Notes: generated from the sequence alone by a model not told the origin. Numbered from the stretch's first letter, positions 4,137-18,673 are shown. The stretch: DNA of 64,000 nt from Pseudomonadota bacterium (GCA_041178085.1 JBEGVZ010000119.1:44723-108722); one strand, 5' to 3'. A program made the numbers and translations.

Positions 4137-4155
4137 ACGCTTGTGGCAGTGACCT

Positions 4156-7100
4156 ATGCACCTAAAACGAATCACCGTTCAGGGCTTCAAGTCCTTTGCT
4201 GACAAAATCAGCCTGACCTTTGACCGGGGCATCACTGGTGTCGTCGGTCCCAACGGTTCGGGCAAAAGCAACATCATCGACGCTGTCCGCTGGGTGATGG
4301 GCGAACAAAACGCCAAGAACCTTCGTGGTGAAAAGGCAACGGACATCATTTTTGCGGGTTCAGAACGCCGCAAGACCATGTCCATGGCAGAGGTTTCGCT
4401 GACCTTTGACAACACCGAAGGTGCCAGCATCTGTCCGCCAGAATACCGGCACGAACCTGAAATCACCCTGACGCGCCGCCTCTACGCGGACGGCCAGCGG
4501 GAATACTTGATCAACCGTAAACCCTGTCGTTTAAAAGACATCGTCGGCTTTTTCGCGATGACCGGCCTTGGTGGGCGCAGCTACTCAATGATCCAGCAGG
4601 GTCAAGTCGACCGGATTCTTAACGCAAAGCCGGAAGACGTCCGCGAAATCCTGGAAGAAGCGGCCGGTACGCTGCTCTACAAGCAGCGCAAGATCGAAGC
4701 GCAAAAGCGCCTGGAAGCCACCAACCTGAACCTTTCGCGCGTGACCGACATCCTGGCTGAAATTGAGCGTCAGAAGACCAGCCTCGAGGAACAAGTCGAA
4801 AAAGCCCAGAAGTGGCAGGAAATGAGCACAAGGCTGCGGGAAGAAGAACTTCTCCTGTTCGCCCACAACTTCAAGCTGTTCAAAGACAAGCTCGACGAAG
4901 CCCAGGCAGCCCTTGCCGAGCAGACGACCAAGGAAGCGGAATTCCTGGCTGCGGTTTCACAGTACGAGGCCCGTTACGAGGAACTCCAGCAGATGCTGGC
5001 CGAAGCAGACCCTGAGCTGGCTGCCGTGGTCGAGCAGATCTCGTCTGTCCGCGAGGAGATTGCCCGCGCAGAATCTTCTGTCAGCAATGCACAGACCCGC
5101 ATGGACACCGGTGCAAACCGCCTGCGCGACATCGGTCGCGAGATCCAGGAAGACGCCGCCAACCTGGCCGTGATTGAGGCCCAGGTCGAAGGGGCGACTG
5201 TGGAACTTTCCACGGCTGAAAAGCTGGCGACGGAACTTCGCCGGCAACTTGAAGACTTCCAGAATGAAGTCGACGCGGTCGATGAATCTGCCCAGGTCTT
5301 CCGCGCGAAGATCGAAGAGGGTGAAGACGAGATCCGCAACCTGACCCGCCTGATCGACACGAACAAAGTGCGTACCGAATCGACCCAGCGCGAGATTGCG
5401 CGGGTCGAGAAATTGATCGAAGGCGAAAACACGCGGCGACAGAGCCTTAGAGAAGACGTCGCCCAGGCCCTTGCGATCGTCGAGTCGGCTCAAGGCAAGG
5501 CTGCCGGGCAGCAAGAAGGCCTGGACGTCGAAATCCGTGAAAAGCACTCGCGTGAAGCTGCGGTTGCTGCGCGTTACGCGCAAATGAAAGAAGCCAACAC
5601 AACCCGCGACACACTGCGCGAGAAGTACCACGAGTCCCGTGCGCGCCTTGCGTCCTTGCAGGAACTTGATGAGCAGGGGGCGACAGACGCCTCTGCTTCA
5701 CTCAACAAGCTTTACGAAACCGGCACTGTCGACCGCGCCAACGTCCCGGGGCTTTTTGCTGAGCAAATTGCCTGGAACAGTAACTCCCAGGAACTGCCGA
5801 AGCCTGCAACGCAGGCCTTTGAACGCTGGGCGGAGCGCATCGTCATCACCGGTGTCGATGGCCTGAACCAGGTCGTACGCGCAGCGTCCAAGGCGGAGGT
5901 GACTCCACTGCCCGTGACCTTGCTGGCGCGTTCCGTCACGCTCAAGTCAAACAGCCAGTTCGCCAGCCAGGTCGCATCCTGGGCATCTGCTTATGATGCC
6001 GTCCCGATGGGTGAGTTCCTACGGATTGACTCCAAACCTCATGCCAGCGGTGAAGCGAAGAGCGGGCTCGAGGCGCTTCTCTCCCGTCTTTACTTCGTCC
6101 CGGCACTGGCCATGGACCAGGCTACGCTTGGAGAGATGCCAGCCGGCCTGATCGCCTTTACGGCACAAGGGCTTTGCATAACCGGTGAAGACGACTTCCT
6201 GGTGAGTGGCAAGGGCGGAGCCAGCGTCTTGAGCCGCAAGTCTGAACAAGAATCGCTGGCCAAGGCGCTGAAGCAAATCGAAGGGGACCTCGCCCGCGCG
6301 CAGTCGCTGATCGATGAGCTGGAACTTAAAATCAACGAAGACCGCGCCGTCGTCACAGAAATCGACGGACGCCTTCAGCAACAAAATGCGACTGTTCTGG
6401 CGATCATGTCGGAACTCCAGTCCGCGCAGCAGGTTGCAACGCACAAGCAGGAGTTGCTTGCTGCACAAGAGCAAACCATGGCGGAACTGTCCCGGCAGGA
6501 CGAGCAGTTCAAGTCGGAACTGGCAAATCTGGAGACCTCGCGCACTTCGCTGGAAGAGGAACTGCGCAACGCCGAAATCGAATTGGCAAGCATCCGCGAA
6601 GAAGCTTCAGGGCTTGAGGAAAGACGCGAGGAAGTCTTCCGCCAGAACCAGCAGCGCTCTGTCGACCTGGCCAAGTCAGAGGCCCGGGCCAATGCCCTGC
6701 GCGAAAGCTTCACCCATGCACGGGCTCAGCAAGAACTTCTGCAAAACAAGCTGAGCCGCCGTTATGAAGAACAGGCCTCCCTGCAAGGGGACATCGACGC
6801 AGCTAAAAATCTGCTGGAACACTCTCAAAACAGGATCGAGGGACTGATTGCCCAGCGCGCTGAGCTGGACGAGAAAGTCGCGGAAAAACGCGAAGCTCAA
6901 GCCGGCATCCATGAAGAACTGCGAGTGATCGACTCGCGCCTCAAAGAGTGCCGTGACCACCAGGCCAAGGTGCAAAAGAGCCTGTCGGACAAGAACGTCC
7001 AGATCGAACGTGCAACCATGGCCATCTCGAGCGTGACGGCCCAGGCCCAGGAGAAATACCAGCTCGACATCGCAACCTACGAATTCACCTTTGACCCTGA

Positions 7101-7974
7101 ATTTGAAGCAGACAAAACTGCGCGCAGCGTCGGCAGCTTGCGTGGTCGCATTGAATCCCTTGGCCCGATCAACATGATGGCCCTGCAGGAGTTCGAAGAG
7201 CTGACCACACGCGAGAACTTCATCCGCACGCAACAGGATGAGATCAACTCCAGCATCATGCTTCTCAATGAGGCCATTGGAGAGATCGAAGTTTCCTCGA
7301 AAGACAAGTTCCTGGCGACGTTCCACATCATCAACCGCGAATTTGGCCAGCTGTTCCCGATCCTTTTCCCGAACGGGGAAGGGCACCTGGAACTGACCAA
7401 CCCGGAAGATCCGCTTGGTGGTGGCGTCGAGATAATGGTCCGCCTGCCTGGCAAAAAGCAGCAGAGCATGAACCTGTTCTCGGGTGGAGAAAAAGCCCTG
7501 ACGGCGATCTCACTGATCTTTGCATTGCTTAAGACCAAGCCGACACCGTTCTGCTTCCTTGACGAAGTTGATGCGCCGCTCGACGAAGCCAACGTCGGCC
7601 GCTACAACCGTGTCCTCGATGCGCTTTCGGACCAGTTCCAGTTCATCATCATTACCCACAACCGCCGCACGATGGAGGTCCTTGACACCCTCTACGGCGT
7701 GACGATGCAAGAGCCAGGCGTCTCCAGCATCGTTGGCGTGGACATGAAGAAGGACTTGCCACCTCACTTGCGCAAGGCGTTCAAGGAAGAGGGTTCAAAG
7801 GAGGCCGTCAAGCCGGCTGCTTCGGCGGCTCCGACGACGAGGATCTCTGGCGCCACGGCAGTGGACGAGGGCGAATCCAGACCAGCTTTGTCGACGGAAC
7901 CTGTGGAACTTGCCCCGGACTTTGACACGGACATCCCCGTGCCGGTCGAGGCACTGCAGGGCAAACTTGAATAA
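4156..7974 (+). CDS. smc: chromosome segregation protein SMC
   Basis: The N-terminus is MHLKRITVQGFKSFADK...GPNGSGKSNIIDA (Walker A). Long coiled-coil arms and a hinge follow. The C-terminal head has LSGGEKALTAISLIFAL (signature), FCFLDEVDAPLD (Walker B) and IIITHN (H-loop). An acidic/Pro-rich tail of about 80 aa follows. Confidence 0.95.
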   Translation: MHLKRITVQGFKSFADKISLTFDRGITGVVGPNGSGKSNIIDAVRWVMGEQNAKNLRGEKATDIIFAGSERRKTMSMAEVSLTFDNTEGASICPPEYRHEPEITLTRRLYADGQREYLINRKPCRLKDIVGFFAMTGLGGRSYSMIQQGQVDRILNAKPEDVREILEEAAGTLLYKQRKIEAQKRLEATNLNLSRVTDILAEIERQKTSLEEQVEKAQKWQEMSTRLREEELLLFAHNFKLFKDKLDEAQAALAEQTTKEAEFLAAVSQYEARYEELQQMLAEADPELAAVVEQISSVREEIARAESSVSNAQTRMDTGANRLRDIGREIQEDAANLAVIEAQVEGATVELSTAEKLATELRRQLEDFQNEVDAVDESAQVFRAKIEEGEDEIRNLTRLIDTNKVRTESTQREIARVEKLIEGENTRRQSLREDVAQALAIVESAQGKAAGQQEGLDVEIREKHSREAAVAARYAQMKEANTTRDTLREKYHESRARLASLQELDEQGATDASASLNKLYETGTVDRANVPGLFAEQIAWNSNSQELPKPATQAFERWAERIVITGVDGLNQVVRAASKAEVTPLPVTLLARSVTLKSNSQFASQVASWASAYDAVPMGEFLRIDSKPHASGEAKSGLEALLSRLYFVPALAMDQATLGEMPAGLIAFTAQGLCITGEDDFLVSGKGGASVLSRKSEQESLAKALKQIEGDLARAQSLIDELELKINEDRAVVTEIDGRLQQQNATVLAIMSELQSAQQVATHKQELLAAQEQTMAELSRQDEQFKSELANLETSRTSLEEELRNAEIELASIREEASGLEERREEVFRQNQQRSVDLAKSEARANALRESFTHARAQQELLQNKLSRRYEEQASLQGDIDAAKNLLEHSQNRIEGLIAQRAELDEKVAEKREAQAGIHEELRVIDSRLKECRDHQAKVQKSLSDKNVQIERATMAISSVTAQAQEKYQLDIATYEFTFDPEFEADKTARSVGSLRGRIESLGPINMMALQEFEELTTRENFIRTQQDEINSSIMLLNEAIGEIEVSSKDKFLATFHIINREFGQLFPILFPNGEGHLELTNPEDPLGGGVEIMVRLPGKKQQSMNLFSGGEKALTAISLIFALLKTKPTPFCFLDEVDAPLDEANVGRYNRVLDALSDQFQFIIITHNRRTMEVLDTLYGVTMQEPGVSSIVGVDMKKDLPPHLRKAFKEEGSKEAVKPAASAAPTTRISGATAVDEGESRPALSTEPVELAPDFDTDIPVPVEALQGKLE

Positions 7975-8261
7975 AAAGCATTGCTAATCATTTCGCTCGC
8001 GCAATGATCTTTGCGTCATGGACGTAGGGAACGTTAACAGTCAGCGTCAACGTCTCCATGGAAACGTCATAGGTGTATTGATCCGGGCCAAGGACAGATT
8101 CTTTTCCGTCGGCAGCTATCAGGAGCTGGTATTCGTCGGTTATATACTTGGCAGGGACCTGATGGGAGCGGAACAGCTTCTTTGACGCAAACCCCTGCAA
8201 CCACGCCAAACCCTTTGAATAGTCGGCCTCACACACTGAGGACCTGAAATCCGCTGCGCTG
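7628..8261. repeat. left copy of the 634-nt direct repeat (smc 3' end + spacer + 3' end of the vWA-lipoprotein gene)
   Basis: By-eye alignment to 15056-15689 is colinear with no indels and about 22 mismatches (about 96.5% identity). Confidence 0.9.
7988..8261 (-). pseudogene. 3' fragment of a vWA-lipoprotein gene; duplicate of the C-terminus of 15416..17236
   Basis: ORF 7988..8308 encodes ...VCEADYSKGLAWLQGFASKKLFRS(H/Y)QVPAKY...LTLTVNVPYVHDAKIIARAK. This is nearly identical to the last ~90 aa of the 615-aa ORF. Homology stops at 8261, and the fragment has no signal peptide or vWA domain. Confidence 0.85.
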
Positions 8262-8374
8262 GCGAGTACACTCACCCTGGCCTGGTTATCCCGAGGAATT
8301 CGTTGCATGGTCGGGTGGCTGTATTAGAAAACGAGTACACTACAATCCAATCACCGGATGTGCAAAAACCAGAT

Positions 8375-9040
8375 CTATTGGCATCGCGCTTCAATCATAC
8401 AACCGTCCTCGTCTGGGGAAACCGAATTAATGAGGCAGCGGCGATCGCTGATCGCAATCTCATCGTCCACTTTGTAGGCGCCACAACCGCCCGGGACCAC
8501 CAAATACTGAATCGAAGCGTAGGGCGTCGGACCCTCCAGCGTTAAAGGGCACCGGATGATACCGACGGTCCACTCAGTCTGCTGCGTTCCCGGTGGTGAA
8601 AGGCGCTGACAATTTGAACCATGAGATTGTCCCAAAAGAAAACGATTGGCATTGTAATAGCAACATGTCTCGGTTGTACCGTCGGTTTCTGGAACTGGTT
8701 CCCCTGGGTCGCAAAACCCGTTGACTGCGTTGATATTGTACTGATCTCGGGGGTAGATCGTACTCAGTAACCCACAATCGCGCGGATTCTCGACAGGCAA
8801 CGATAACTCAATTCTCATGGAGCCCTTTAAGCGGACACAGCAATACATATTTTCTGGCGGACCATCTGACGTTGGCTCTGGCGTACCTTGCTCAAGCAGG
8901 GACAACCGGGAATTCTCGCCCGTAGGATATTCGTTGACCTTCGTCCGTCGATCCAATGCCTCATCCACTGTGCAACCATATATCAAACAGACACCCATAG
9001 TCCCGATCGCAAATCGGCTAACGAATCTAGAAATGGTCAC
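8375..9040 (-). CDS. Cys-rich lipoprotein (hypothetical)
   Basis: The signal peptide and lipobox read MGVCLIYGC. The mature part has more than 12 Cys. I recognise no family motif. Confidence 0.5.
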   Translation of the reverse strand: MTISRFVSRFAIGTMGVCLIYGCTVDEALDRRTKVNEYPTGENSRLSLLEQGTPEPTSDGPPENMYCCVRLKGSMRIELSLPVENPRDCGLLSTIYPRDQYNINAVNGFCDPGEPVPETDGTTETCCYYNANRFLLGQSHGSNCQRLSPPGTQQTEWTVGIIRCPLTLEGPTPYASIQYLVVPGGCGAYKVDDEIAISDRRCLINSVSPDEDGCMIEARCQ

Positions 9041-9193
9041 TTAACACCTCCAGAATAACCGAAATATTCAAATGCCACCCGACGCGGATAACTAAGCCTA
9101 GGTCAGAAGCGCGACCATGCATCATGATTGCATGTTACCTGTCGACCCAACAGCTCTGGGACCAAAAGTCATCCAAACACGGCAGAGTCCTTT

Positions 9194-9538
9194 TCAATCT
9201 CCAATCGTCTGAAGGGGACCACTAACTGGGTCAGCTGTCGAAAAGTCAGACGCCAATCCACGCGTATCCGTAAAATTGCAAGCTGGCGAGGGAAGGTTGG
9301 GCGCGGTTGAACCAAGCAAGTGGCATTCCAGCGTCTGGTGACAATGCCCATTAGTAAAAATTTGAAACATCACCTTACAGCTCTCTCTCTGGCCCGTCTC
9401 GGTGCATCTTTCAAAAATTTGATACAATCTCTCTCGGCACGGGCCGAGATAAGACGTCGGCCCTGACGCAAAACCAAGGTCCACGATCGACGCAAGTAAC
9501 GTACATAGAACAAATGCAAAAACCACGAATCTCACCAC
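9194..9538 (-). CDS. small secreted Cys-rich protein (hypothetical)
   Basis: The N-terminus is hydrophobic (MVRFVVFAFVLCTLLASIVDLGFASG) and the mature part has 7 Cys. The only other support is ORF length in AT-richer DNA. Confidence 0.35.
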   Translation of the reverse strand: MVRFVVFAFVLCTLLASIVDLGFASGPTSYLGPCRERLYQIFERCTETGQRESCKVMFQIFTNGHCHQTLECHLLGSTAPNLPSPACNFTDTRGLASDFSTADPVSGPLQTIGD

Positions 9539-9688
9539 GTTTGCCCTCCCTCGCGTCGTTAAAACAATAATCTCGGGCTGACCGTACGGTTACTGGGACC
9601 CCAGAGTCCAAAACGTCTTTCCACTCTGACGTCAGCGGTCGGCAAAGCAAAAAACTTAATAAGGCTTTTTCAGTGACACTAAATCTCG

Positions 9689-9990
9689 CGCCATTCCCGG
9701 ATGTTATCGTGTTCGCCCATTACACTTTATCAAGTGTAGTACGGTCTCCTGTTTGCTGAGGTTTACACGCGGGTGCCATCGACCTGGTGGTTGAGCGCTA
9801 TTTAGTCGCCCGGGATTTGTAGGAAATTGAAGCGCGGTTTGGATTCTATGGAACCCACCCTACGCCCCCGCCAATTTCGTTGGCCCATCCGTTACGCACC
9901 GGTATTTCGGGCTTCCCTAGCTATCCAACACCGCCATCATTCGACCAATCCCTGAGCGTCCCCATTTTTTAGTAAACACTCGGTGTCTCC
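9689..9990. repeat. island internal repeat, copy A (non-coding)
   Basis: Blocks cgccattcccggat..., gaaattgaagcgcggtttggattcta and acgcaccggtatttcgggcttccctagctatccaacaccgccatcattcgaccaatccctgagcgtcccc recur at 12052-12232. Copy A carries extra internal segments. Confidence 0.8.
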
Positions 9991-10292
9991 ATGCTTAATT
10001 GATTCTCGACATACGGCGATCACCTAGCTCCTCACACATCAAAATCCCAGAAGCCGTACCCCCCGTATTGTCTCATCGGACCATTGCACAGGGTTCACTC
10101 TTCTCTGGAGCTATCTAAGATCGATGAATTTTTGATGAATCCAGAAAATATTATCAGATTCCCTAAAGTTGGCATGGACTCATACCGAATGATTGACCGG
10201 ATAACAAACGAAGAGGCCTCAAAGAGCAATTGAATGGAAAATTTTTGGTTGAGACCGAGAGCAAGGGTTTCGCAGAAACGGAGGGTCAAGTT

Positions 10293-11786
10293 ATGACTCA
10301 AAAAATCCGACTGCTCGTCGCGTTGCTTGTCATCTCTGCGTGCGATGCAGATTCAGGGATGACCGGACGCAGCGCCCAGCCGTCTAGGGTAACAGGGAAT
10401 CCAACAACGGGTGCTCTTTGGATTGTTGACGGCGAGGAAATCAAAACCGTGGACGATGGCGTTGGGGCTTTGATCAAATTTTATGACCCAGCCCCCCAGC
10501 CACTAAACACCATGCCGCCCCGAAATCAGCCTATGACGCCGCCAAATAAGTCCATTCTGACCGTCTGCTCGTCTTCGGAAATTCCCGGGAGAATTAAAGA
10601 AAATGGACGCTGCCTTTTGACAGCAGCCCATTGCGTCCAGGAGGAGTGGGGAACTCTCACAAGAGATTTTTTTTATCGGCAACATTACTACGCCAGGTTC
10701 ATCGACGGTAAGGGCGACAACCTGGACGAGATTCAAAAGGGTCATGTCAACCGCTCAATCCGAGTCAAGCCTCACCCTTATTACCGCTTGTCCGTGCAGC
10801 AAGTCACATCCGAACCTTATTCCAACATGGACCTGGCATTGGTTTGGCAACGTCCGTATGCATGCAAGCTGGAAAAAGGTCGCGATTGGGGACACAAATG
10901 TGAAGAGAAGGATCCCAATGCAGTCAAAATTCAATGGCACCCTCTTGTGCTCGCATTTGACCGTACAAAGGAAGGACAATTGCTGGATCATGTCGGCTAC
11001 GGCAGATCCAGAATAGATGACGATGATTTCAGCACATCAGGCATTAAGAGACGCGGGCAAACAATTTTGAAAGACGTTTATGAATCCGACGTAGGTTTGG
11101 GAGCTTTCTATATTTATGGAACAATCGAAGGAAAGTCACAAATAGTCGAGAAAGGCGACAGCGGTAGTCCGATTTTAGTCAATCGGAAAGTTGTTGGTGT
11201 AGTAAGTGCGCGACATGAGGCGGGAGAGCGAGGTACCGCCCTCTTTCCGTTTCTCAACCATCAATTCGTAGCAAACGAACGAGTATTCGAGCCGGCAAAT
11301 CAGAAATGGCATTGGGGTGAAGCGGCTAAATTCTGTCGCCCAAAACCCCTCTTATCTTTGGATGTTCAGGTCTTTGCAGAGGGTTCAGATTCTGCGCAAG
11401 TCGTAACCGATTTCAATCGCGGCAACATCGACGTCGAAATTATCGACCCTGTTGAGGAATACGAGAAACGTGCCGGCACCTGTGACAAGACCGAGGAGCC
11501 AACACAACTATGTTTAGTCGATTCTGTCGTTGAGGAAATCACACTAAAAGCAAAGCCGAAGAATAACTTCCGCTTCATACGGTGGGTATCCAGAATCCCC
11601 GGCGCAGAATTATGCCCCTGTGGGAATAGCACATCGACCGAGTGTCGAATCAACACCAACAACATCTCATGGAGGCAAGAGAACGAAGGGATTCAGTGCG
11701 CTGCACAGTTTGATATTGCATCTAGTCCACCGGGATCATGCGATATCCCGTCGCTTTCTGGCACGAGATGCGGTCTCCAAGACTGA
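10293..11786 (+). CDS. secreted trypsin-like (S1 family) serine protease with a Cys-containing C-terminal extension
   Basis: A GGAGGG RBS lies 7-8 nt before the ATG at 10293. The lipoprotein-type signal is MTQKIRLLVALLVISAC. The catalytic triad context is LLTAAHCV (His), NMDLALVW (Asp) and EKGDSGSPIL (Ser). Confidence 0.85.
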   Translation: MTQKIRLLVALLVISACDADSGMTGRSAQPSRVTGNPTTGALWIVDGEEIKTVDDGVGALIKFYDPAPQPLNTMPPRNQPMTPPNKSILTVCSSSEIPGRIKENGRCLLTAAHCVQEEWGTLTRDFFYRQHYYARFIDGKGDNLDEIQKGHVNRSIRVKPHPYYRLSVQQVTSEPYSNMDLALVWQRPYACKLEKGRDWGHKCEEKDPNAVKIQWHPLVLAFDRTKEGQLLDHVGYGRSRIDDDDFSTSGIKRRGQTILKDVYESDVGLGAFYIYGTIEGKSQIVEKGDSGSPILVNRKVVGVVSARHEAGERGTALFPFLNHQFVANERVFEPANQKWHWGEAAKFCRPKPLLSLDVQVFAEGSDSAQVVTDFNRGNIDVEIIDPVEEYEKRAGTCDKTEEPTQLCLVDSVVEEITLKAKPKNNFRFIRWVSRIPGAELCPCGNSTSTECRINTNNISWRQENEGIQCAAQFDIASSPPGSCDIPSLSGTRCGLQD

Positions 11787-12051
11787 CATCTCGTTTTTTG
11801 ACCTTTGCGTTATAAACGGGATTGTAGAATTAACGAAGCACCTTGAGACCAGCTCGCGGCAATCTTCCAGGATCATGAAGGGAGAAGCTAACGGGACTTT
11901 AACAAAACTCCCTGAGGTTGCTATCATTGTAGTTAAGAGGCCGAGAGTTGTCTTTGAGGAGTTTAACCCTAAGAACAAGGTGAAAACTCGGTAGCAGTCG
12001 CCAGAGGCGGCGATTAAGTTTATATAAATCAAAAAACCAAAAATTTTCCTT

Positions 12052-12232
12052 CGCCATTCCCGGATATTCGCCGTCACTCCAAGACGAGATGCGTCATCGT
12101 CTCCCGCGGCCGATTGCAGAAAATCAAAGCGCGGCTTGGGTTCTAACGCACCGGTATTTCGGGCTTCCCCAGCTATCCAACACCGCCATCATTCGACCAA
12201 TCCCTGAGCGTCCCCATTTTTCGTAAACACTG
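12052..12232. repeat. island internal repeat, copy B (non-coding), immediately downstream of transposase remnant 1
   Basis: See copy A. The 86-nt core acgcaccggtatttcggg...cgtcccc has only 1-2 mismatches. Confidence 0.8.
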
Positions 12233-12292
12233 CCTCACCGGCACCATTTTTCAGAGCGCATACCGCCACCAATTGAGCAGAGAAATATTCCC

Positions 12293-12589
12293 AGCCTGGC
12301 GACGGCGTCTGATCCGTGCTGGCATCGACTGCAGGATCAGCGTCAAGCCCCATCAACATGGGCTTATAGTAAGACGAGGCGCATGCGGGGGATCACTGGC
12401 AAGTCCGACGTGACGCAGGTAGCGCCGCGCCTCATTCAGGTGGCAGATTGCCGCTACGACGCACAGTTCTCCGCCGCAAGTGCAGCGGGTGATGTCGATG
12501 TTAAAAACACGGGATAAAAGCCCTGATTCGCAAATCGCTATTGCGGCTATTGGGCCTATTGAAAAGAAAAAAAAATTTCCCTGTGACAT
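12293..12589 (-). pseudogene. IS91/ISCR-family (Y2 rolling-circle) transposase, 3'-terminal remnant 1
   Basis: The minus-strand translation is ...LLSRVFNIDITRCTCGGELCVVAAICHLNEARRYLRHVGLASDPPHAP. This matches my recollection of the IS91-family C-terminus (W-x-x-LL-x-RVF-x-D-x-x-x-C-x-x-CGG...HLGL...PP.AP). The catalytic N-terminal part is absent. Nucleotide homology to 14696-14905 continues past the stop. Confidence 0.55.
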
Positions 12590-12694
12590 CCATCACGAAT
12601 TGAATTCCAAGAGATGAATTTGGTTGATCTGGCGTAGCTAATCCAATATCAATCGCGCGCTTTCTTAATTAAAAAAACGTCATAAAAGGATCCG

Positions 12695-13216
12695 ATGATG
12701 AAAGCTTTCCTACGCATCCTCTCTTGTTTTGCTGTCTCCGTTAGCGTTCTAGCCTGCGGTGAAATCCGGCCCGTGGCGACCTTGTCTGAAAGCAGCGCCA
12801 TCGGAGCAAGTGCCGGCGAATTGGCCCAGAAATTGGAAGCTATCATGGAGGGGACCCTTTACTACAGTGAGGCCGACTATCCATGGACGGCTTTCCATTC
12901 TAGGGTCGCTGTCTCGAAACTTTATGGCGAAAATGAGTTGCGCCTTGCTCTTCGCGTACCAGCAGGCGCACCGATTCGAGTTTACTCAGCAAACGATACT
13001 CGTGAAATCTGGCAATCCCTGCGAGAAGATAATTCCAGCGATCCGCAAGCCGCGACCCGTTATGGAAAACTGCACTCTGTAATGCATGAAAACCTGCAGG
13101 ATGTCCGTTTTATAAAAATCGGAAAGGGAGACAGCGGCGCACTGGATTTTTTCGTCGTGGGACGCGACGCGCGCGGATTCCTGATCGGGGTGAAAACCAT
13201 CAAAGTTGAGACCTGA
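12695..13216 (+). CDS. exported NuiA-like nuclease-inhibitor family protein
   Basis: The signal/lipobox is MMKAFLRILSCFAVSVSVLAC. GTLYYSEADYPWTAF and FFVVGRDARGFLIGVKTIKVET parallel the Anabaena NuiA segments GLLFMSESEYPFEVF and VYVIGETPAGNLAGISTKVVET, which I recalled from memory. Confidence 0.6.
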   Translation: MMKAFLRILSCFAVSVSVLACGEIRPVATLSESSAIGASAGELAQKLEAIMEGTLYYSEADYPWTAFHSRVAVSKLYGENELRLALRVPAGAPIRVYSANDTREIWQSLREDNSSDPQAATRYGKLHSVMHENLQDVRFIKIGKGDSGALDFFVVGRDARGFLIGVKTIKVET

Positions 13217-13241
13217 TCCTAGTTTCCTAGAATCTTTGCCT

Positions 13242-13272
13242 AAGGCTGCCAGTTGATCCTGGCGGCCTTTTC
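13242..13272 (+). terminator. putative Rho-independent terminator after the NuiA-like gene
   Basis: The hairpin is aaggctgccag-ttgatc-ctggcggcctt (11-bp stem with one G-U), followed by tttt. Confidence 0.55.
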
Positions 13273-13601
13273 GCTATCATCGGACGAAATTCGATGTTGC
13301 CGCCTCACAGAGAAATGCCAACAGTCGTACCTACCTCATGGCCGAGTGGATAAAGGCCACGCACAAGAGTGAAAAAGGCACCATGACCGAATCCACTTTG
13401 GAGCGGTCGCCTTTCCGAATAAACCCATTTAGTTCGGGTTGTTAACCTCGTGCACGCCCTGTTTCTAGGCAAATCATTCTCGCCCTAATATTCGGTCAAA
13501 CCATCGAAATCACAGCTAAAGGCGCCATGAAGCAGCCTGGTACACGAGCTGCATCCACAGGCCAATAGTGCGAATTGACTTATCGAAGGAGAAACAAAGT
13601 C

Positions 13602-14048
13602 ATGAAAAAAATTGTTTTTGTTTTGGGCACATTAGCTGTGGCTGCATGCGGGACAAATCTAGATCAAAGCAATTTGGCGACCCAGCGTGACACAAAATCG
13701 CAAGCCAAGAAGGAAAAAATTGCAAAAATTCCGGGGCTTGTTGGCCAAGATCGACAAGGCCGGCTGGAATTCTACGGGATCGATCGTAAGGAGCAAACCA
13801 TCGCGATACGCGTACCGGTAGTCGACGGATTTTTCACCCAAACTGACATCAAAAAAATGATGGATTGCAGTGTTAAAAGGCAAACGCACGCCATCACAGT
13901 CGAAGTTCACAAGAGCACGCAAACTGGCGTACCCACTGGCATCCCAGGGGTGACGATCGAAACTCACATGCCGAAATACAAAAATATTCGCTGTGAAAAA
14001 ATGCCAGGTTTTCTCGCTGAATGGCGACTGGTAGTCAACGGCCGATAA
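13602..14048 (+). CDS. small lipoprotein (hypothetical)
   Basis: An AAGGAG RBS precedes the ATG at 13602. The signal/lipobox is MKKIVFVLGTLAVAAC. I recognise no family motif. Confidence 0.55.
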   Translation: MKKIVFVLGTLAVAACGTNLDQSNLATQRDTKSQAKKEKIAKIPGLVGQDRQGRLEFYGIDRKEQTIAIRVPVVDGFFTQTDIKKMMDCSVKRQTHAITVEVHKSTQTGVPTGIPGVTIETHMPKYKNIRCEKMPGFLAEWRLVVNGR

Positions 14049-14109
14049 AATTGCTCGCACGACAATTGAACTGAAACAAATAATCCAAATTTTTTTAGAG
14101 GAGAGATTT

Positions 14110-14523
14110 ATGCGTAGTTTTCTGGTAACAGCGATGATGGTTTCCGCGGGCGGATTTATAGCATGTAAAAGCGGTTCTCAAGGGGATCTTTCCTTTTCTG
14201 CCAATGCGGCAGACGCTTTGAAATGCAGAGCCCAAATTGAAACTGTACAAGACATCCACCTTGATAACCGAGGTAAAACCCTGCAATTGGAACCGCAGGG
14301 TGGCGAACCCTTGCTGTACGCAGCGAACGACGCGGGCATTTCATATAATGCGTCGGTCGACGACGAAGCAGGCGTGATTGATTTCCAGATTTTCGACAAG
14401 ACACCCAAGACGGGATTCAAAGCTACATCCAAAGGATTCGTTCCAGACGGCAAGTACCGGCGTAACAGCAGCAAGCTGGAAGTTACAAACTCCAAGGGCC
14501 GTTTCACGATTTATTGCGAGTAG
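14110..14523 (+). CDS. small lipoprotein (hypothetical)
   Basis: A GAGGAGAG RBS precedes the ATG at 14110. The signal/lipobox is MRSFLVTAMMVSAGGFIAC. I recognise no family motif. Confidence 0.55.
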   Translation: MRSFLVTAMMVSAGGFIACKSGSQGDLSFSANAADALKCRAQIETVQDIHLDNRGKTLQLEPQGGEPLLYAANDAGISYNASVDDEAGVIDFQIFDKTPKTGFKATSKGFVPDGKYRRNSSKLEVTNSKGRFTIYCE

Positions 14524-14695
14524 CAGTCGCTCGTCAGGGCAGGCACCAAACAGTGCCTGACCCTGGCACAGTGAAAGCCTTGACGCGCGTCGCACCAGGC
14601 CAATACCTGCGAATGATATCTTCATCTGCGGATGCCCCGAAAGAGCGCAATAAAATCGGAGCACCAGAAGCAGCGGTAACATTGATTTATTCAGG

Positions 14696-15012
14696 GCCTG
14701 GCGAGATCATCTGGTCCGTGCTGGCATCTACTGCAGAACCGGCATCAAACTCCATCACCACCGGCTTATAATGAGGCAGGACGCATGCCGGGGATCACTG
14801 GCAAGTCCGACGTGATGAAGGTAGCACCGCGCCTCATCCTGTTCACAGATTGCCACTACGGCGCGCAACTCTCCGCCACAGGCGCAGCGAGTGATGTCGA
14901 CATTAAAGACACGCGAGAGAAGATTCGCCCAGCTCGACCCATTAAGATCGTCTAGACTAGATATCTTTTCAAGAAACTCCAGCGGGATGATAAGCAGGGG
15001 GGACGTCCCATC
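14696..15012 (-). pseudogene. IS91/ISCR-family transposase, 3'-terminal remnant 2 (internally deleted); it lies about 43 nt from the right direct repeat
   Basis: The minus-strand translation is DGTSPLLIIPLEFLEKISSL..SSWANLLSRVFNVDITRCACGGELRAVVAICEQDEARCYLHHVGLASDPRHA. It is homologous to remnant 1 (12293-12510) at both DNA and protein level. It has no start codon or catalytic region of its own. Confidence 0.55.
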
Positions 15013-15055
15013 ACAGGCGATTGAAGCTTGATCTGCTGCATTTTTTGGATTTTGA

Positions 15056-15402
15056 CGGACCAGTTCCAGTTCATCATCATTACCGACAACCGCCGCACGA
15101 TGGAGGTCCTTGACACCCTCTACGGCGTGCCGATGCAAGAGCCAGGCGTCTCCAGCATCGTTGGCGTGGACATGAAGAAGGACTTGCCACCCCACTTGCG
15201 CAAGGCGTTCAAGGAAGAGGGTTCCAAAGAAGCCGTCAAGCCAGCTGCTTCGGCGGCTCCGACGACGAGGATCTCTGGCGCCACGGAAGTGGACGAGGGC
15301 GAATCCAGACCAGCTTTGTCGACGGAACCTGTAGAACTTGCCCCGGACTTTGACACGGACATCCCCGTGCCGGTCGAGGCACTGCAGGGCAAACTTGAAT
15401 AA
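15056..15402 (+). pseudogene. smc 3' fragment (last ~115 codons), duplicate of 7628-7974
   Basis: ORF 15028..15402 encodes DQFQFIIITDNRRTMEVLDTLYGVPMQEPG...ALQGKLE. It differs from the SMC C-terminus by H->D, T->P and A->E plus 6 synonymous changes. It lacks Walker A/B and the coiled coil. Confidence 0.9.
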
Positions 15403-15689
15403 AAAGAATTGCTAATCATTTCGCTCGCGCAATGATCTTTGCGTCATGGACGTAGGGAACGTTAACAGTCAGCGTCAACATCTCCATGGAAACGTCATAG
15501 GTGTATTGATCCGGGCCAAGGACAGACTCTTTTCCGTCGGCAGCGATCAGGAGCTGGTATTCGCTGGCCACATACTTGGCAGGGACCTGATAGGAGCGAA
15601 ACAGCTTCTTTGATGCAAACCCCTGCAACCACGCCAAACCCTTTGAATAGTCGGCCTCACACACTGAGGACCTGGAATCCGCTGCGCTG
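15056..15689. repeat. right copy of the 634-nt direct repeat
   Basis: See the left copy, 7628-8261. Confidence 0.9.
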
Positions 15690-17236
15690 AAAAGGATTTT
15701 AGACTCCGCTGATGGATCTACTGCGCATCCAGAGGCATTTCCTGCCCCCGTGTTGCCGATCACCGAGACTGTAAAATTTCCAGGGCCAAAAAGGTTTACG
15801 GCCCTCGTTCGCAAGAGTGCTGGTAAATCACCGGCGTTGGTCACGCCATCATAGTTTATGAATCCGCCTTTTTGCTGGCCGTACCATGTGCTGAACCATA
15901 CTTCGCCACTGAAAATGTCGTCTGGATAGACCTCCTTGAAATAATCGACAACCGATGGATAGGTCTTTCCCTGGTAAATGAACGGCGCTGGATTGATGTT
16001 ATTCCATTCGACGGGCACCGACGATCCGACCTGGTGCGACCATTGAAGCACCGTGTTGCATGTGTCGTTGTCACTCAAACGATATTTCCCGGATTGAATC
16101 TCTGCGGCGTAGGTTTGCCTGAAATACTGCAAGTAATCTGCCCTCTGTTCGGTTGTGCACGCTTCATGGGAATTCATTGGTTTCGATGGATCACAAAGTG
16201 AATTGATCTTGCACCGTTTTTGTAGCCTTTGGAGGCTAGGCTGGCGGTCGCAATAGCCGTCATTGACAGTGCTGTCGCATTTTGCCTGATAATTCATGGT
16301 CACGACGGTTTGCAAACTCCTGGCAATGGCATTGGTGTTTTGGTAGGCAAGCACGGTTTGCTTGTTGGCGTACGGACAGGGCAGTAACCTGCTTGTCTGG
16401 TCCTCATCCGAAATGATCAGGAACGCAACGCGGTCCTTGCTGGCAAAGATTTTATTCGGACCATCGTTATCCAGCATGGCTGCCATGGCGCAAAGAGGCA
16501 TCTCTTCGGGATTTCCGCGATCTCCCAGGATGATCTCTTGCTTCAGCTTCGACCGCACGGCCGCGAAATCCTGCGCCGACATGTTGTCGGTAAATTTAAG
16601 GGTCCCGTCCTGGCTGGTGAATCCGGACTGGTTGATGACGAATTTTGTCATGGCCTCTTCCGGGACGAAATCGAGCTCGTTGGAAGTTGCCGTGATCCAG
16701 ATGCCACCCTTCCTGACCGTCGGGATGAAGGCAAGGGACGGTTTCAATGTGTCAGAAAGGATCTCGGAATAGTGAAGTCCAGGCCAGGTTGCGAAGGTGT
16801 TACCCAGGGGAAGATGCTTCAGGACATAATTGTTCAGGTAATTTGTCCCAAAAAACTTGAAGGTCCGGTTGAAGATTGATGAAGAGTAAAGATAAACGGT
16901 CACATTCTTACCGCGGACGCTTTCCATGGCTGAATCAAGGGCCTTCGCCAAGAGCTGTTGCTTCGGCACCATGGACGAAGAGTCGTCAACAATCAGGACC
17001 AGCTTCAAGGGCTCTGACGTGTCATCAAAGCGCAAGTTCAGGGCAAAATCTGGCGCCTTCGCCGGGGCAACTTGCGGACGGTCAAGCGGGCGCCCCGTTA
17101 TCGCGCTTTCGGTCTGTTGGACGATTGCATGATTGTCGGGGCCGTTTGAGTCCGTAATGCCTGAAAACTTAGCGATGCGAGAACAGGCTGTCGTCGCCAG
17201 CAGGCTGGCGATCGGAATTAAGAACTCGAATCGCAT
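15416..17236 (-). CDS. vWA-domain lipoprotein (hypothetical)
   Basis: The start at ATG 17236 gives the signal/lipobox MRFEFLIPIASLLATTAC. The MIDAS-like motif is LVLIVDDSSSM (DxSxS). The CEADYS motif is shared with the paralog at 37189..39354. Confidence 0.65.
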   Translation of the reverse strand: MRFEFLIPIASLLATTACSRIAKFSGITDSNGPDNHAIVQQTESAITGRPLDRPQVAPAKAPDFALNLRFDDTSEPLKLVLIVDDSSSMVPKQQLLAKALDSAMESVRGKNVTVYLYSSSIFNRTFKFFGTNYLNNYVLKHLPLGNTFATWPGLHYSEILSDTLKPSLAFIPTVRKGGIWITATSNELDFVPEEAMTKFVINQSGFTSQDGTLKFTDNMSAQDFAAVRSKLKQEIILGDRGNPEEMPLCAMAAMLDNDGPNKIFASKDRVAFLIISDEDQTSRLLPCPYANKQTVLAYQNTNAIARSLQTVVTMNYQAKCDSTVNDGYCDRQPSLQRLQKRCKINSLCDPSKPMNSHEACTTEQRADYLQYFRQTYAAEIQSGKYRLSDNDTCNTVLQWSHQVGSSVPVEWNNINPAPFIYQGKTYPSVVDYFKEVYPDDIFSGEVWFSTWYGQQKGGFINYDGVTNAGDLPALLRTRAVNLFGPGNFTVSVIGNTGAGNASGCAVDPSAESKILFSAADSRSSVCEADYSKGLAWLQGFASKKLFRSYQVPAKYVASEYQLLIAADGKESVLGPDQYTYDVSMEMLTLTVNVPYVHDAKIIARAK

Positions 17237-17353
17237 CCGGAATTTTAGGCTTCCTCTCAGCATGTAACGGAGTATCGGATCCGGGGCGACCGATGCTTAC
17301 GGGTAATTCGGCTTTACGATTAACCATCCATTATCATTGATGATATTAGACCA

Positions 17354-18673
17354 TCAGAGAGGCTTGTAGGGCTGAAAGAACTGGTTGAGTCCAAGGGACA
17401 CACCTGATGTCCTGATTTCGTTGCTCCGACCCCAGCCATAATCGATTCGAAACACCAGCCGGTGAACCTTCGGAATGGCAATGCGTACACCAGCACCAGC
17501 CGAACGAAAGACGTCTTTTTTCGCGTCAGCAAAATCGTCACCTGCGATGCCGGCGTCCGTGAACAGGACTCCTGCCAGCTTCACAGCGCGTGAAGTAAAC
17601 ACTTCTGAACGCAGTTCGAGGTTGCCGTAGGCGGCAAAGGGGCCCTGACGAATACCGTCTGGAAAACCCCGCACGGAGTCAAAACCGCCTAGATGAAACA
17701 CGTTGGAAATCGTCGGCGCCCCGGCAGACTGCATGTAAGCATGTGCTGCCATGTTGAACGTCTGCACCGGGCGCAGGAAGGCAAATCCCTCGACTTCCGC
17801 ATAACGAGAATCACCGGGGTTTTCGACACCCGCCGAACGGGACACGCCCCACTTTAAACTTGCACGGACCCCGTCAAGCAACTGGTCCTCGACTGCCATA
17901 TTGTCAAACACTGCCGACAGCAGAAGACGGTTCTCAGACGATGCGTCACCTGCCGGTAAATCGATTCCGGTCAAGGGACTGCCTTCGATCGAGGGACGGC
18001 CGTCGCGCCTGCTCAAAAACTCAAACCCAGCCTGTAAAATCAGCGGATCCAGCGGACCGGTAATAGAATCAATCAACGAAAAAAGATGCTGGGCGCGGAC
18101 AAAAGAGCTGTCAAAACCGAGTACCCCCGTTTCGTTTCCTGCTGCGTCATAAAAAGTCCGGCGGCGAAAATCCCGCCATAGCTCAATCCCGGCAGAACTC
18201 CTGCCCTGTCCAGCGCGCGGAAGTTTTGCCCAGAGCGTGAATCCCGCCGGCGCACTGCCATATTTTTTGGTTTCCGCACCCAGGGTGACCAGGCGGCCAA
18301 GAGCGTGGGTTTCATAAACCCCGGCGACCAGCAGGGGAGTACCGCCGCCGTAAGCGCCACGCACGACCGGGATGGTTGTCCATTTTTCTTCCACGTCGAT
18401 CACGAGGCGACCGTCCGCTAGACGGACGTCCACGCGCAGGAAAACATCCGTAGTCAGGAGTTTCGTGCGGATACGCTCCAGGTCAGCGTTCGCCAAATCG
18501 GCTGGCAAGGCCAATCCAAGATAATGTTTGAGCCAATCCGGATCGGTGCGGGAGATTCCGCGAAATTCAAAATCACGGGCAACTTCCCCGTAGCAGGAAC
18601 CCTGCGCAAACAAGAACAGGAAAAATGCGCAGGCATAAGGCAGCGCGCTGCGCCAGCAAGAAAGCCAGCTCAC
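17354..18673 (-). CDS. Omp85/BamA-TamA-family outer-membrane protein with a single POTRA-like domain
   Basis: A signal peptide is followed by a POTRA-like segment (FEFRGISRTDPDWLKHYLGL...RLVIDVEEKWT). The barrel follows, with GGFDSVRGFP and RIDYGWG motifs typical of the bacterial surface antigen (D15) domain. Confidence 0.6.
   Translation of the reverse strand: MSWLSCWRSALPYACAFFLFLFAQGSCYGEVARDFEFRGISRTDPDWLKHYLGLALPADLANADLERIRTKLLTTDVFLRVDVRLADGRLVIDVEEKWTTIPVVRGAYGGGTPLLVAGVYETHALGRLVTLGAETKKYGSAPAGFTLWAKLPRAGQGRSSAGIELWRDFRRRTFYDAAGNETGVLGFDSSFVRAQHLFSLIDSITGPLDPLILQAGFEFLSRRDGRPSIEGSPLTGIDLPAGDASSENRLLLSAVFDNMAVEDQLLDGVRASLKWGVSRSAGVENPGDSRYAEVEGFAFLRPVQTFNMAAHAYMQSAGAPTISNVFHLGGFDSVRGFPDGIRQGPFAAYGNLELRSEVFTSRAVKLAGVLFTDAGIAGDDFADAKKDVFRSAGAGVRIAIPKVHRLVFRIDYGWGRSNEIRTSGVSLGLNQFFQPYKPL

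Follow-up and report, generated by a model that had tools for sequence, protein, structure and literature searches.

Direct repeats of the smc/lipoprotein gene junction and a candidate fossil IS91/ISCR-type capture array in an uncultured Bdellovibrionota chromosome

How does a bacterial chromosome come to carry the ends of two convergent genes twice, on either side of a block of foreign DNA, and still keep one complete version of each gene? The locus considered here raises this question. It lies in a 64-kb window (the whole stretch of DNA analysed, 64,000 nucleotides of contig JBEGVZ010000119.1), in which a 634-nt segment covering the 3′ end of smc, a short spacer, and the 3′ end of a convergent lipoprotein gene occurs as a direct repeat around an island of genes for predicted exported proteins. 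The nearest named relatives of the encoded SMC protein belong to metagenome-assembled genomes (MAGs) of Bdellovibrionota/Oligoflexia. On the comparisons set out below, we regard it as moderately likely that the island is the fossil of an array built by rolling-circle capture of the IS91/ISCR type, and that homologous (Campbell-type) recombination placed it in a hotspot between smc and an Omp85-superfamily gene.

Duplicated gene ends around a foreign island

Ungapped comparison of positions 7628-8261 with 15056-15689 (offset 7428) gives 612 identities over 634 positions, with 22 mismatches and no indels (96.53%), and the identity just outside both repeat ends is at background (21-33%). The same pair was recovered by a repeat search and by BLASTN (E = 0, 1045 bits), and neither method found a third copy within the 64-kb window; the BLASTN self-comparison, which an earlier note on this DNA had suggested as a check, returned this pair. 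In the left copy, the repeat consists of the last 347 nt of smc (to 7974), a 13-nt spacer (7975-7987), and 274 nt of lipoprotein gene 3′ end (7988-8261). The left repeat is continuous with an intact smc encoding a 1272-aa protein, and its lipoprotein side is a stub of 106 codons; the right repeat completes the open reading frame (ORF) of a 615-aa lipoprotein, and its smc side is a stub of 124 codons. A host segment is directly duplicated, and each interrupted gene is intact on one side only. The earlier note had read the repeats from the sequence as colinear, 634 nt long and about 96.5% identical with about 22 mismatches and no indels, had divided them into about 347, 13, and about 274 nt, and had assigned the intact smc and lipoprotein stub to the left copy and the reverse to the right; the ungapped comparison, BLASTN, and the ORF and repeat coordinates bear out each of these figures. 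The longest exact runs common to both copies are 73-74 nt. The fragments at the repeat edges (7988-8308, 106 aa; 15028-15402, 124 aa) are annotated publicly as protein-coding, and the 124-aa one clusters with SMC proteins; both called genes are gene stubs and should be treated as fragments by anyone using the annotation.

The DNA between the repeats (6,794 nt) has a GC content of 0.499, against 0.564 ± 0.005 (minimum 0.552) in 205 same-sized windows taken elsewhere in the 64 kb, and its tetranucleotide distance from the rest lies 13 standard deviations above the null given by those 205 windows. GC at third codon positions (GC3) is 0.48-0.55 in the island genes versus 0.59-0.69 in smc, the epimerase gene, and their neighbours, and the 615-aa lipoprotein gene is intermediate (GC 0.52, GC3 0.63). 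The island is compositionally foreign, and the composition profile agrees with the claim of the earlier note that it is AT-richer (GC 49.9% vs 56.4%, tetranucleotide z = 13).

The two copies of the repeat have diverged in ways that bear on their history. Within the smc part there are 9 differences, 6 of them synonymous and 3 replacements; the lipoprotein part has 12, of which 4 are synonymous, with 6 amino-acid changes. Neither stub contains a stop codon or an indel. The replacements H1168D (in the H-loop) and T1183P (in YGVTMQE) are derived in the smc stub, four outgroups keeping H and T; at one synonymous site the intact smc is the derived copy, and changes occur on both lineages. By our own binomial estimate, the synonymous excess has p ~0.01 against purely neutral change, and the pattern in the smc segment fits a history of some divergence under selection followed by decay.

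Truncated IS91/ISCR-like copies and their shared terminus

Inside the island, the earlier note had noticed two internal repeat families together with transposase debris. All of these are present, though not as separate things: sequence comparison shows that they are three 5′-truncated copies (a, b, and c; Table 1) of one element of the IS91/ISCR family, each oriented like the other two, and these three pieces account for the long non-coding gaps of the island. The two minus-strand transposase fragments (12286-12520 in copy b and 14688-14922 in copy c) are 80% identical to each other and match the NCBIfam profile ISCR_clade_Ia at positions 443-487 of 509, with E = 1e-6 for copy c and 1e-3 for the other fragment. 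By tblastn, more than 5000 plasmids carry matches to them, at the C-termini of transposase genes annotated as ISCR1, ISCR2/ISVsa3, ISCR27, or IS91-family. When reference genomes were scanned with a degenerate pattern, two further genomes with relatives emerged, 77-80% identical to the fragments at the protein level: a Pseudobacteriovorax antillogorgiicola MAG (Oligoflexia; L019) with an ORF of 313 aa, and a 4.6-kb MAG scaffold (L020) with fragments. The 313-aa ORF matches Pfam Y2_Tnp (5e-13) and aligns to residues 198-498 of the ISCR1 transposase and 203-494 of that of ISCR27. At the DNA level, 12146-12522 in copy b is 82% identical to L020 2446-2823 in one contiguous BLASTN alignment, and 9894-9980 is 96.5% identical to 12146-12231, these being the 3′ non-coding region of the same element in copies a and b.

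Of the transposase, no more than the final ~80-115 codons are left, and these contain a frameshift and an internal deletion. In copy b, a deletion of 45-55 nt takes out one hairpin arm, and the terminus is degenerate; the 5′ side of copy c lies 28 nt from the right repeat. Copies b and c share a frameshift relative to L019 and L020 (at ~12388 and ~14791), the true coding ends being 12286 and 14688. Sharing it despite only 80% identity would mean either a common defective ancestor or a sub-lineage with a shorter C-terminus. The 67 nt conserved past the apparent stop of the fragments were considered as a non-coding end of the element and rejected as such, since in L019 and L020 this stretch belongs to the coding sequence, and the frameshift is common to the window copies. 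We also note that the 3′ cores of a and b are far closer to each other (96.5%) than the coding remnants of b and c (80%), and that copy c lacks exactly the region kept in copy a; copies c and a may be the halves of one element split by insertion of M1, copy b, and M2 (M1 to M3 denote the cargo modules of Table 1), or the pattern may reflect recombination in the 3′ region. A word-indexed protein search with the two transposase fragments gave no candidates. An exhaustive search of 1.84 billion representative proteins with the 90-aa remnant gave 362 relatives, mostly short fragments, and in the full-length ones among them (486-555 aa) the match falls at the extreme C-terminus, where identity is 42-51%.

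The 3′ terminus of the element, GCGCTTCAATTTCCTACAA, lies ~227 nt past the stop codon (227 nt in L020). We aligned five copies from three genomes (three from L020, one from L019, and window 9817-9980): all five end in ...CCGCGCTTCAATTTCCTACAA(TC), and the flanks beyond are unrelated. Window segment 9817-9969 can be aligned to the end of each of the three L020 copies. Exact copies of the terminal 19-mer are present in L019, at two places in L020, and at one in the window; viral contigs contain none. In the fetched sequences of ISCR1, ISCR2, and ISCR27, the origin end oriIS (...GTTTGAACTTCCTATACCC) finishes 234-258 nt past the stop codon, and the oriIS region of ISCR1 is given as 232 bp (PMC6218425). 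The terminal CAATTTCC pairs with a conserved upstream arm, GGAAATTG, and hairpin-forming ends have been described for the ISCR family (PMC13393415). By eye, the terminus is identical to the ISCR consensus at 14 of 18 positions. We consider the terminus oriIS-like on the grounds of its position and of the copy comparison, and define it by that comparison because motif and matrix scans alone would not identify the site.

Along the minus strand, the locus reads as right repeat (15689 to 15056), 28 nt, copy c (15027 to 14678), M1, copy b (12522 to ~12112), M2, copy a (9980 to 9817), M3, and left repeat (8261 to 7628). All three copies point the same way, and the 5′ side of copy c, where the terminator end terIS would lie, faces the right repeat, with the origin side facing the cargo. 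The layout recurs elsewhere. L019 holds two 5′-truncated copies (3311-4356 and 7593-8072), 3.7 kb apart, with genes for exported proteins of 419 aa and 402 aa between them, and L020 holds three (174-448, 2180-2911, and 3485-3919) in 4.6 kb, interleaved with genes for a 513-aa lipoprotein and a smaller exported protein. Each of these copies is 5′-truncated at a different point and keeps its 3′ terminus, and the cargo proteins are unrelated between the window, L019, and L020.

The island itself encodes six ORFs, five with a lipobox-like motif and the sixth with a hydrophobic N-terminus; these motifs support the statement in the earlier note that it encodes only exported proteins, and the island would add such proteins to the surface or secreted repertoire of the cell. 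Profile searches with Pfam and NCBIfam found no integrase, recombinase, or replication-protein domain in island ORFs of at least 114 aa, nor any domain of a class 1 integron platform (intI1, attI1, qacEdelta1/sul1) in island or flanking ORFs. tRNA and Rfam scans of the island found no tRNA, tmRNA, or Rfam family, PADLOC matched no defence or phage-type family, and promoter and terminator signals did not rise above those in shuffled sequences. At present, recombination between the flanking repeats is probably the only way in which the island could still move; such recombination is possible, and would restore both genes if the crossover fell to the right of 7702 and to the left of 8052.

Table 1. 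Coordinates of the repeats, genes, and element remnants, and of the matches of the closed assembly path L025, in the 64-kb window.
Feature	Position	Strand	Remarks
smc, intact, 1272 aa	4156..7974	+	TIGR02168 SMC_prok_B 873 bits; 82-90% identity to SMC of relatives
Left 634-nt direct repeat (smc 3′ end, 13-nt spacer, lipoprotein 3′ stub)	7628..8261		repeat search, ungapped comparison, BLASTN
Lipoprotein 3′ stub, called as 106-aa gene	7988..8308	-	lipoprotein-derived part only 7988-8261; six aa differences vs intact copy
M3 gene, 221-aa predicted lipoprotein	8375..9040	-	no family match
M3 gene, 114-aa protein, hydrophobic N-terminus	9194..9538	-	no family match
IS91/ISCR-like copy a	9817..9980	-	last ~165 nt of 3′ non-coding region; upstream inverted-repeat arm kept; 79-86% identity to three L020 copies
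Copy a terminus	9837->9817	-	perfect CCGCGCTTCAATTTCCTACAA; unique match in window
M2 gene, 497-aa lipoprotein, trypsin-like serine protease domain	10293..11786	+	PF00089 27.3 bits, above cut-off; TAAHC and GDSGSP motifs intact
IS91/ISCR-like copy b	12112..12522	-	last ~80 transposase codons (frameshifted) and 3′ non-coding region; NCBIfam ISCR_clade_Ia
L025 match	12299-14680		part of copy b and all of M1; 98.0%
M1 gene, NuiA-like (nuclease-inhibitor fold) lipoprotein, 173 aa	12695..13216	+	Pfam PF07924 58 bits
M1 gene, 148-aa lipoprotein	13602..14048	+	no family match
M1 gene, 137-aa lipoprotein	14110..14523	+	no family match
IS91/ISCR-like copy c, transposase remnant	14678..15027	-	5′-truncated; internal ~177-nt deletion at 14947-14952; no 3′ non-coding region; BLASTN matches to L019, L020
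Right 634-nt direct repeat	15056..15689		repeat search, ungapped comparison, BLASTN
smc 3′ stub, called as 124-aa gene from TTG at 15028	15056..15402	+	derived H1168D (H-loop), T1183P
Lipoprotein gene, intact, 615 aa (606 aa as called)	15416..17263	-	accessory; GC 0.52
L025 match	16707-17071		inside lipoprotein gene; 97.3%
L025 match	17281-17527		lipoprotein upstream region and Omp85 3′ end; 91-95%
Omp85-superfamily gene, 439 aa	17354..18673	-	conserved right border of variable gap; directly convergent with smc in two relatives

The smc/Omp85 gap in relatives and a closed path in another sample

We examined six relatives whose SMC proteins are 82-90% identical to that of the window, none exceeding 90%. 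In two relatives, L008 (13760-13786) and L009-11 (L009 13787-13818), the gap is empty: smc is directly convergent with the Omp85 gene across 27-32 nt, and beyond the Omp85 gene come the same epimerase, TatA, and fli genes that the window has there. The gap holds one unrelated 864-aa lipoprotein gene in L007 (13751-16354) and L026, three unrelated small exported-protein genes in L004-6 (L004 6272-7766), and a different, larger gene set in the P0137 contig. P0137 and P0141/L026 are closer SMC relatives by cluster membership, yet carry other content downstream of smc. The island genes, the IS remnants, and the 615-aa lipoprotein are absent from the smc/Omp85 loci of all six relatives, the lipoprotein gene being lacking in four by DNA and in two more by gene order. 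Because the gap is empty or differently filled in these relatives, the ancestral state is taken to be smc convergent with the Omp85 gene, and the 615-aa lipoprotein is accessory; the whole interval from ~7960 to 17353 is a variable hotspot for exported-protein genes. Across the genomes, the content of the gap ranges from 27-32 nt to 9.4 kb and always consists of unrelated proteins with a signal peptide or lipobox. The final ~5 smc codons vary together with the insert and differ from those of the closest alignable relative.

The lipoprotein gene that shares the repeat is itself rare. Only two homologues (P0002 and P0003; 53% and 47%) were found among 5.8 billion cluster representatives, both in non-syntenic contexts, and none in the reference-genome collection; P0002 and P0003 were considered as sources of an empty site and rejected, their contexts being unrelated. 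The protein has no Pfam or NCBIfam match, VWA included, and the label vWA that the earlier note had given it finds no support there and goes back to a DxSxS motif. This motif (DDSSS) follows a predicted beta-strand, with an "IISDED" strand later, and the protein is vWA-like by motif only. An AlphaFold model built from a three-sequence alignment was unusable (predicted local distance difference test score, pLDDT, 36). Searches of metagenomes with the smc/lipoprotein junction pattern and with the 87-nt internal repeat gave no matches, a result of little weight since the collection also missed the window's own Joint Genome Institute (JGI) contig.

That contig (3300043449 Ga0451725_0000304, 39,952 bp) is identical across the region to the 108,856-bp NCBI contig, and the two assemblies probably derive from the same reads. 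Material from another run is provided by a Logan contig of 3,026 bp (SRR19514065_1035555, here L025), reached via cluster look-ups. Its three matching segments (Table 1) are arranged and directed, relative to one another, just as they are in the window, and its host part amounts to ~0.6 kb of the lipoprotein/Omp85 junction. The first and last 30 nt of the contig are identical, which equals k-1 for k = 31 and is an overlap seen in 0 of 5 other Logan contigs, and the joined ends read as continuous Omp85 sequence. L025 is a closed cycle of 2,996 bp in the assembly graph, which stands for either a small circle or copies arrayed in tandem; it could be a free circle, could come from tandem amplification, or could be an excision product enriched by amplification. 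It has no replication gene and no origin end. L025 confirms from another sample that the junction between copy b and M1 and the boundary of M1 at 14680 are real, it links M1 to this chromosomal neighbourhood there, and it shows that a closed path joining cargo, an IS remnant, and a few hundred host bases does occur.

Two further observations concern closed or end-overlapping contigs. At ~2881-2890 in L025, the lipoprotein start, its signal peptide, and 17 nt upstream have been deleted between CCGGGGC(G/A)AC direct repeats of 9-10 nt (window 17063-17072 and 17281-17290). A 2,661-bp contig from a Pseudomonadales MAG (JBGSHJ010000054.1, L022) has a 96-nt exact end overlap and C-terminal fragments of an IS91-family transposase at both ends, and may represent a distant member of the family, assembled either as a circle or as a repeat-bounded piece.

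Competing origins and known counterparts

Simple direct transposition was ruled out as a source of the repeats: with intact frames across 7627/7628 and 15689/15690, it would have needed an insert that restored both genes exactly. Because both frames are intact across the repeat edges, recombination within homologous sequence is required. In the sequence of events that we favour, elements would have overrun their terminator and copied adjacent DNA, collecting the cargo modules and a piece of the smc/lipoprotein junction from the same species or a close relative. A circle carrying the cargo and one copy of the junction would then have recombined with the resident junction through host RecA-type homologous recombination, an event that would duplicate the 634 bp and leave smc and the lipoprotein gene both intact. 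Deletions would subsequently have removed nearly all of the transposase genes, and probably also more of the duplicated smc, and the two non-functional stubs would have drifted. The earlier note had likewise read the geometry as Campbell-type integration, and the testable points agree with a single crossover of a circle bearing one junction copy, the event itself being one that we infer.

Several findings weigh against this account. The search for a circular excised form, advised in the earlier note, did not turn up the predicted 7,428-bp circle (the insert plus one repeat), only the different 2,996-bp path of L025, which has another host fragment, lacks an origin end, and differs at at least three junctions. 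The note had also advised a comparison of related genomes to look for an empty site carrying a single repeat copy; all six relatives are without the island, and no such allele (smc, single repeat, lipoprotein gene) was found, the six relatives that lack the island also lacking the lipoprotein gene. We know of no donor in which the element adjoins smc. No intact transposase with HUH and two-tyrosine motifs exists in the 64-kb window, none of this lineage is present among the 1.84 billion representatives (the closest, at 74%, being a 145-aa fragment), and terIS is missing from every copy in the window, L019, and L020, all of them 5′-truncated. Copy c has no origin end, and its join to the smc stub is of the deletion type rather than a terIS boundary; as the join falls inside both the transposase gene and smc, the left repeat boundary is probably the product of a secondary deletion. 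The island has no match to the canonical oriIS motif of ISCRs (TTCCTATACCC; 18-mer, up to 3 mismatches), and a matrix made from four ISCR oriIS sequences ranks the island terminus only 9th of 128,000 positions. Finally, the synonymous excess in the smc segment is not significant under a model of decay in place, with one copy selected and one neutral (p ~0.09, our estimate); part of the 3.5% divergence may pre-date the merger.

The same codon-position pattern leaves room for a purely local history, in which unequal crossing-over or slippage first duplicated in situ and in tandem a stretch that begins within smc and includes the lipoprotein gene, IS91-like arrays were then inserted into the first lipoprotein copy, deletions took the 5′ part of that copy up to the smc stub, and all of the 3.5% divergence arose in place. 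No bacterial rearrangement is commoner than tandem duplication, both stubs keep their frame and are free of stops, with changes on both lineages, and the junction of the smc stub with remnant c looks like a deletion endpoint. We nonetheless think such a history unlikely, as it needs more events (a duplication, an insertion into one copy, and deletions ending exactly at the present boundaries), passes through a duplication of at least 2 kb that would be unstable, attributes to coincidence where remnant c lies and which way it points with respect to the repeat, and leaves the closed path with a module and a host fragment unexplained. That path cuts both ways for an assembly chimera, in which a chromosome with a single repeat was threaded through shared k-mers with a separate molecule, or with another strain's island, bearing a 3.5%-diverged copy. 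The source is a metagenome, the exact runs of 73-74 nt suffice to join paths at k ≤55, the resulting sequence would be identical to that of a true Campbell product, and a small circular path with related content does exist in another sample; on the other hand, L025, from an independent run, ties M1 to the lipoprotein and Omp85 genes arranged and oriented as in the window, the assemblies of 39,952 bp and 108,856 bp agree at 100% identity, the 22 differences across the repeat let read pairs and large k separate the copies, and an island with neither a replication gene nor an intact transposase could not persist alone. We judge an artefact of this kind improbable. Least credible, to the point of being very hard to entertain, is a site-specific island placed by an integrase or recombinase with the repeats as attachment sites, which foreign composition and flanking direct repeats might bring to mind: the island ORFs of at least 114 aa have no such domain, there is no tRNA or tmRNA and no match to a defence or phage-type family, and in place of short identical att cores, the repeats comprise two gene ends, 634 nt in length and 96.5% identical.

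The closest counterpart of capture followed by recombination is found in the complex class 1 (sul1-type) integrons built by ISCR1. There, sul1 of the 3′ conserved segment (3′-CS) is followed by the transposase gene, oriIS, and cargo (PMC6218425, PMC13393415), a layout that can also be read from a reference ISCR1 sequence (L018: sul1 of the 3′-CS, transposase gene, oriIS, cargo). In the accepted model, aberrant rolling-circle replication past terIS gives a circle of ISCR1, cargo, and part of the 3′-CS, which enters by homologous recombination with a resident 3′-CS (PMC7707992), although transposition has not been shown experimentally for any ISCR (PMC6218425). As in that scheme (the Toleman model), a conserved segment is directly duplicated around the insert, and the 5′ side of the element lies against the first copy with its origin towards the cargo; the insert encodes no recombinase, arrays may comprise several modules, and a second copy of the segment (for ISCR1, the 3′-CS) stands past the cargo (PMC6218425, PMC7707992). 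The island differs in having no intI1, attI, qacEdelta1, or sul1, in that the part of the 3′-CS is played by the junction of chromosomal smc with an accessory lipoprotein gene, in carrying genes for exported proteins instead of resistance genes, in the bad truncation of all three copies, in its terminus (GCGCTTCAATTTCCTACAA vs ...TTCCTATACCC in ISCR1), and in its host, an uncultured member of the Bdellovibrionota. The comparison with ISCR1 drawn in the earlier note is more than an analogy, in that the debris is of the IS91/ISCR family (ISCR_clade_Ia) and is placed and oriented as the ISCR1 model has it. The island resembles an ISCR1 complex integron in how it works without being one, as it lacks an integron platform and has a different host, cargo, and terminus.

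Three other systems share parts of this architecture. With the one-ended rolling-circle transposition of IS91, IS801, and IS1294, the remnants share Y2_Tnp homology, an origin end a couple of hundred nucleotides past the gene, hairpin ends, and capture on the 5′ side of the transposase gene; unlike those elements, they include no intact element, terIS, or HUH/Y2 catalytic region. IS91 itself prefers GTTC/CTTG targets. Truncated delta-ISCR2/ISVsa3 units flank floR, sul2, and tet(X) in plasmids and genomic islands. Such units (an example context is L017) are likewise copies that are 5′-truncated but retain the origin end, are interspersed with cargo genes, and often stand in tandem and point the same way, but their arrays sit in resistance regions of Proteobacteria, usually with at least one intact copy, of which we know none for the lineage in the island. 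Laboratory Campbell insertion of a non-replicating circle gives an identical geometry, in which the cloned fragment is directly duplicated, genes are intact on one side, and the copies can excise the insert; the island differs in being natural, in the 3.5% divergence of its copies, and in a vehicle that would be an IS-derived array, not a plasmid.

All copies that we have seen (eight in three genomes, and one circle) are 5′-truncated. Because every copy is so, and because public data hold no intact transposase, the short origin-bearing ends might be working module boundaries, mobilised in trans or by recombination alone, and not mere debris. As a proposal that we put forward with real doubt, an IS91/ISCR-like lineage of Bdellovibrionota (Oligoflexia and related groups) may be to exported-protein genes what ISCR1 is to resistance genes and may build chromosomal arrays of origin ends and cargo at hotspots, with modules travelling as small circles in which a few hundred bases of host DNA serve as the homing arm for homologous recombination.

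Capture of the ISCR type is known almost entirely from the resistance regions of clinical Proteobacteria, and the same architecture is met here in the chromosome of an uncultured environmental member of the Bdellovibrionota. The locus is of interest for its duplicated segment, which is the end of a housekeeping gene, for its surface or secreted cargo, and for the recurrence of arrays of truncated copies plus cargo in two other genomes. It also offers a defined terminus and a candidate circular molecule, both directly testable. Taken at face value, these features suggest that the ISCR-type mechanism is a general means of shuffling accessory genes, and not one peculiar to resistance integrons.

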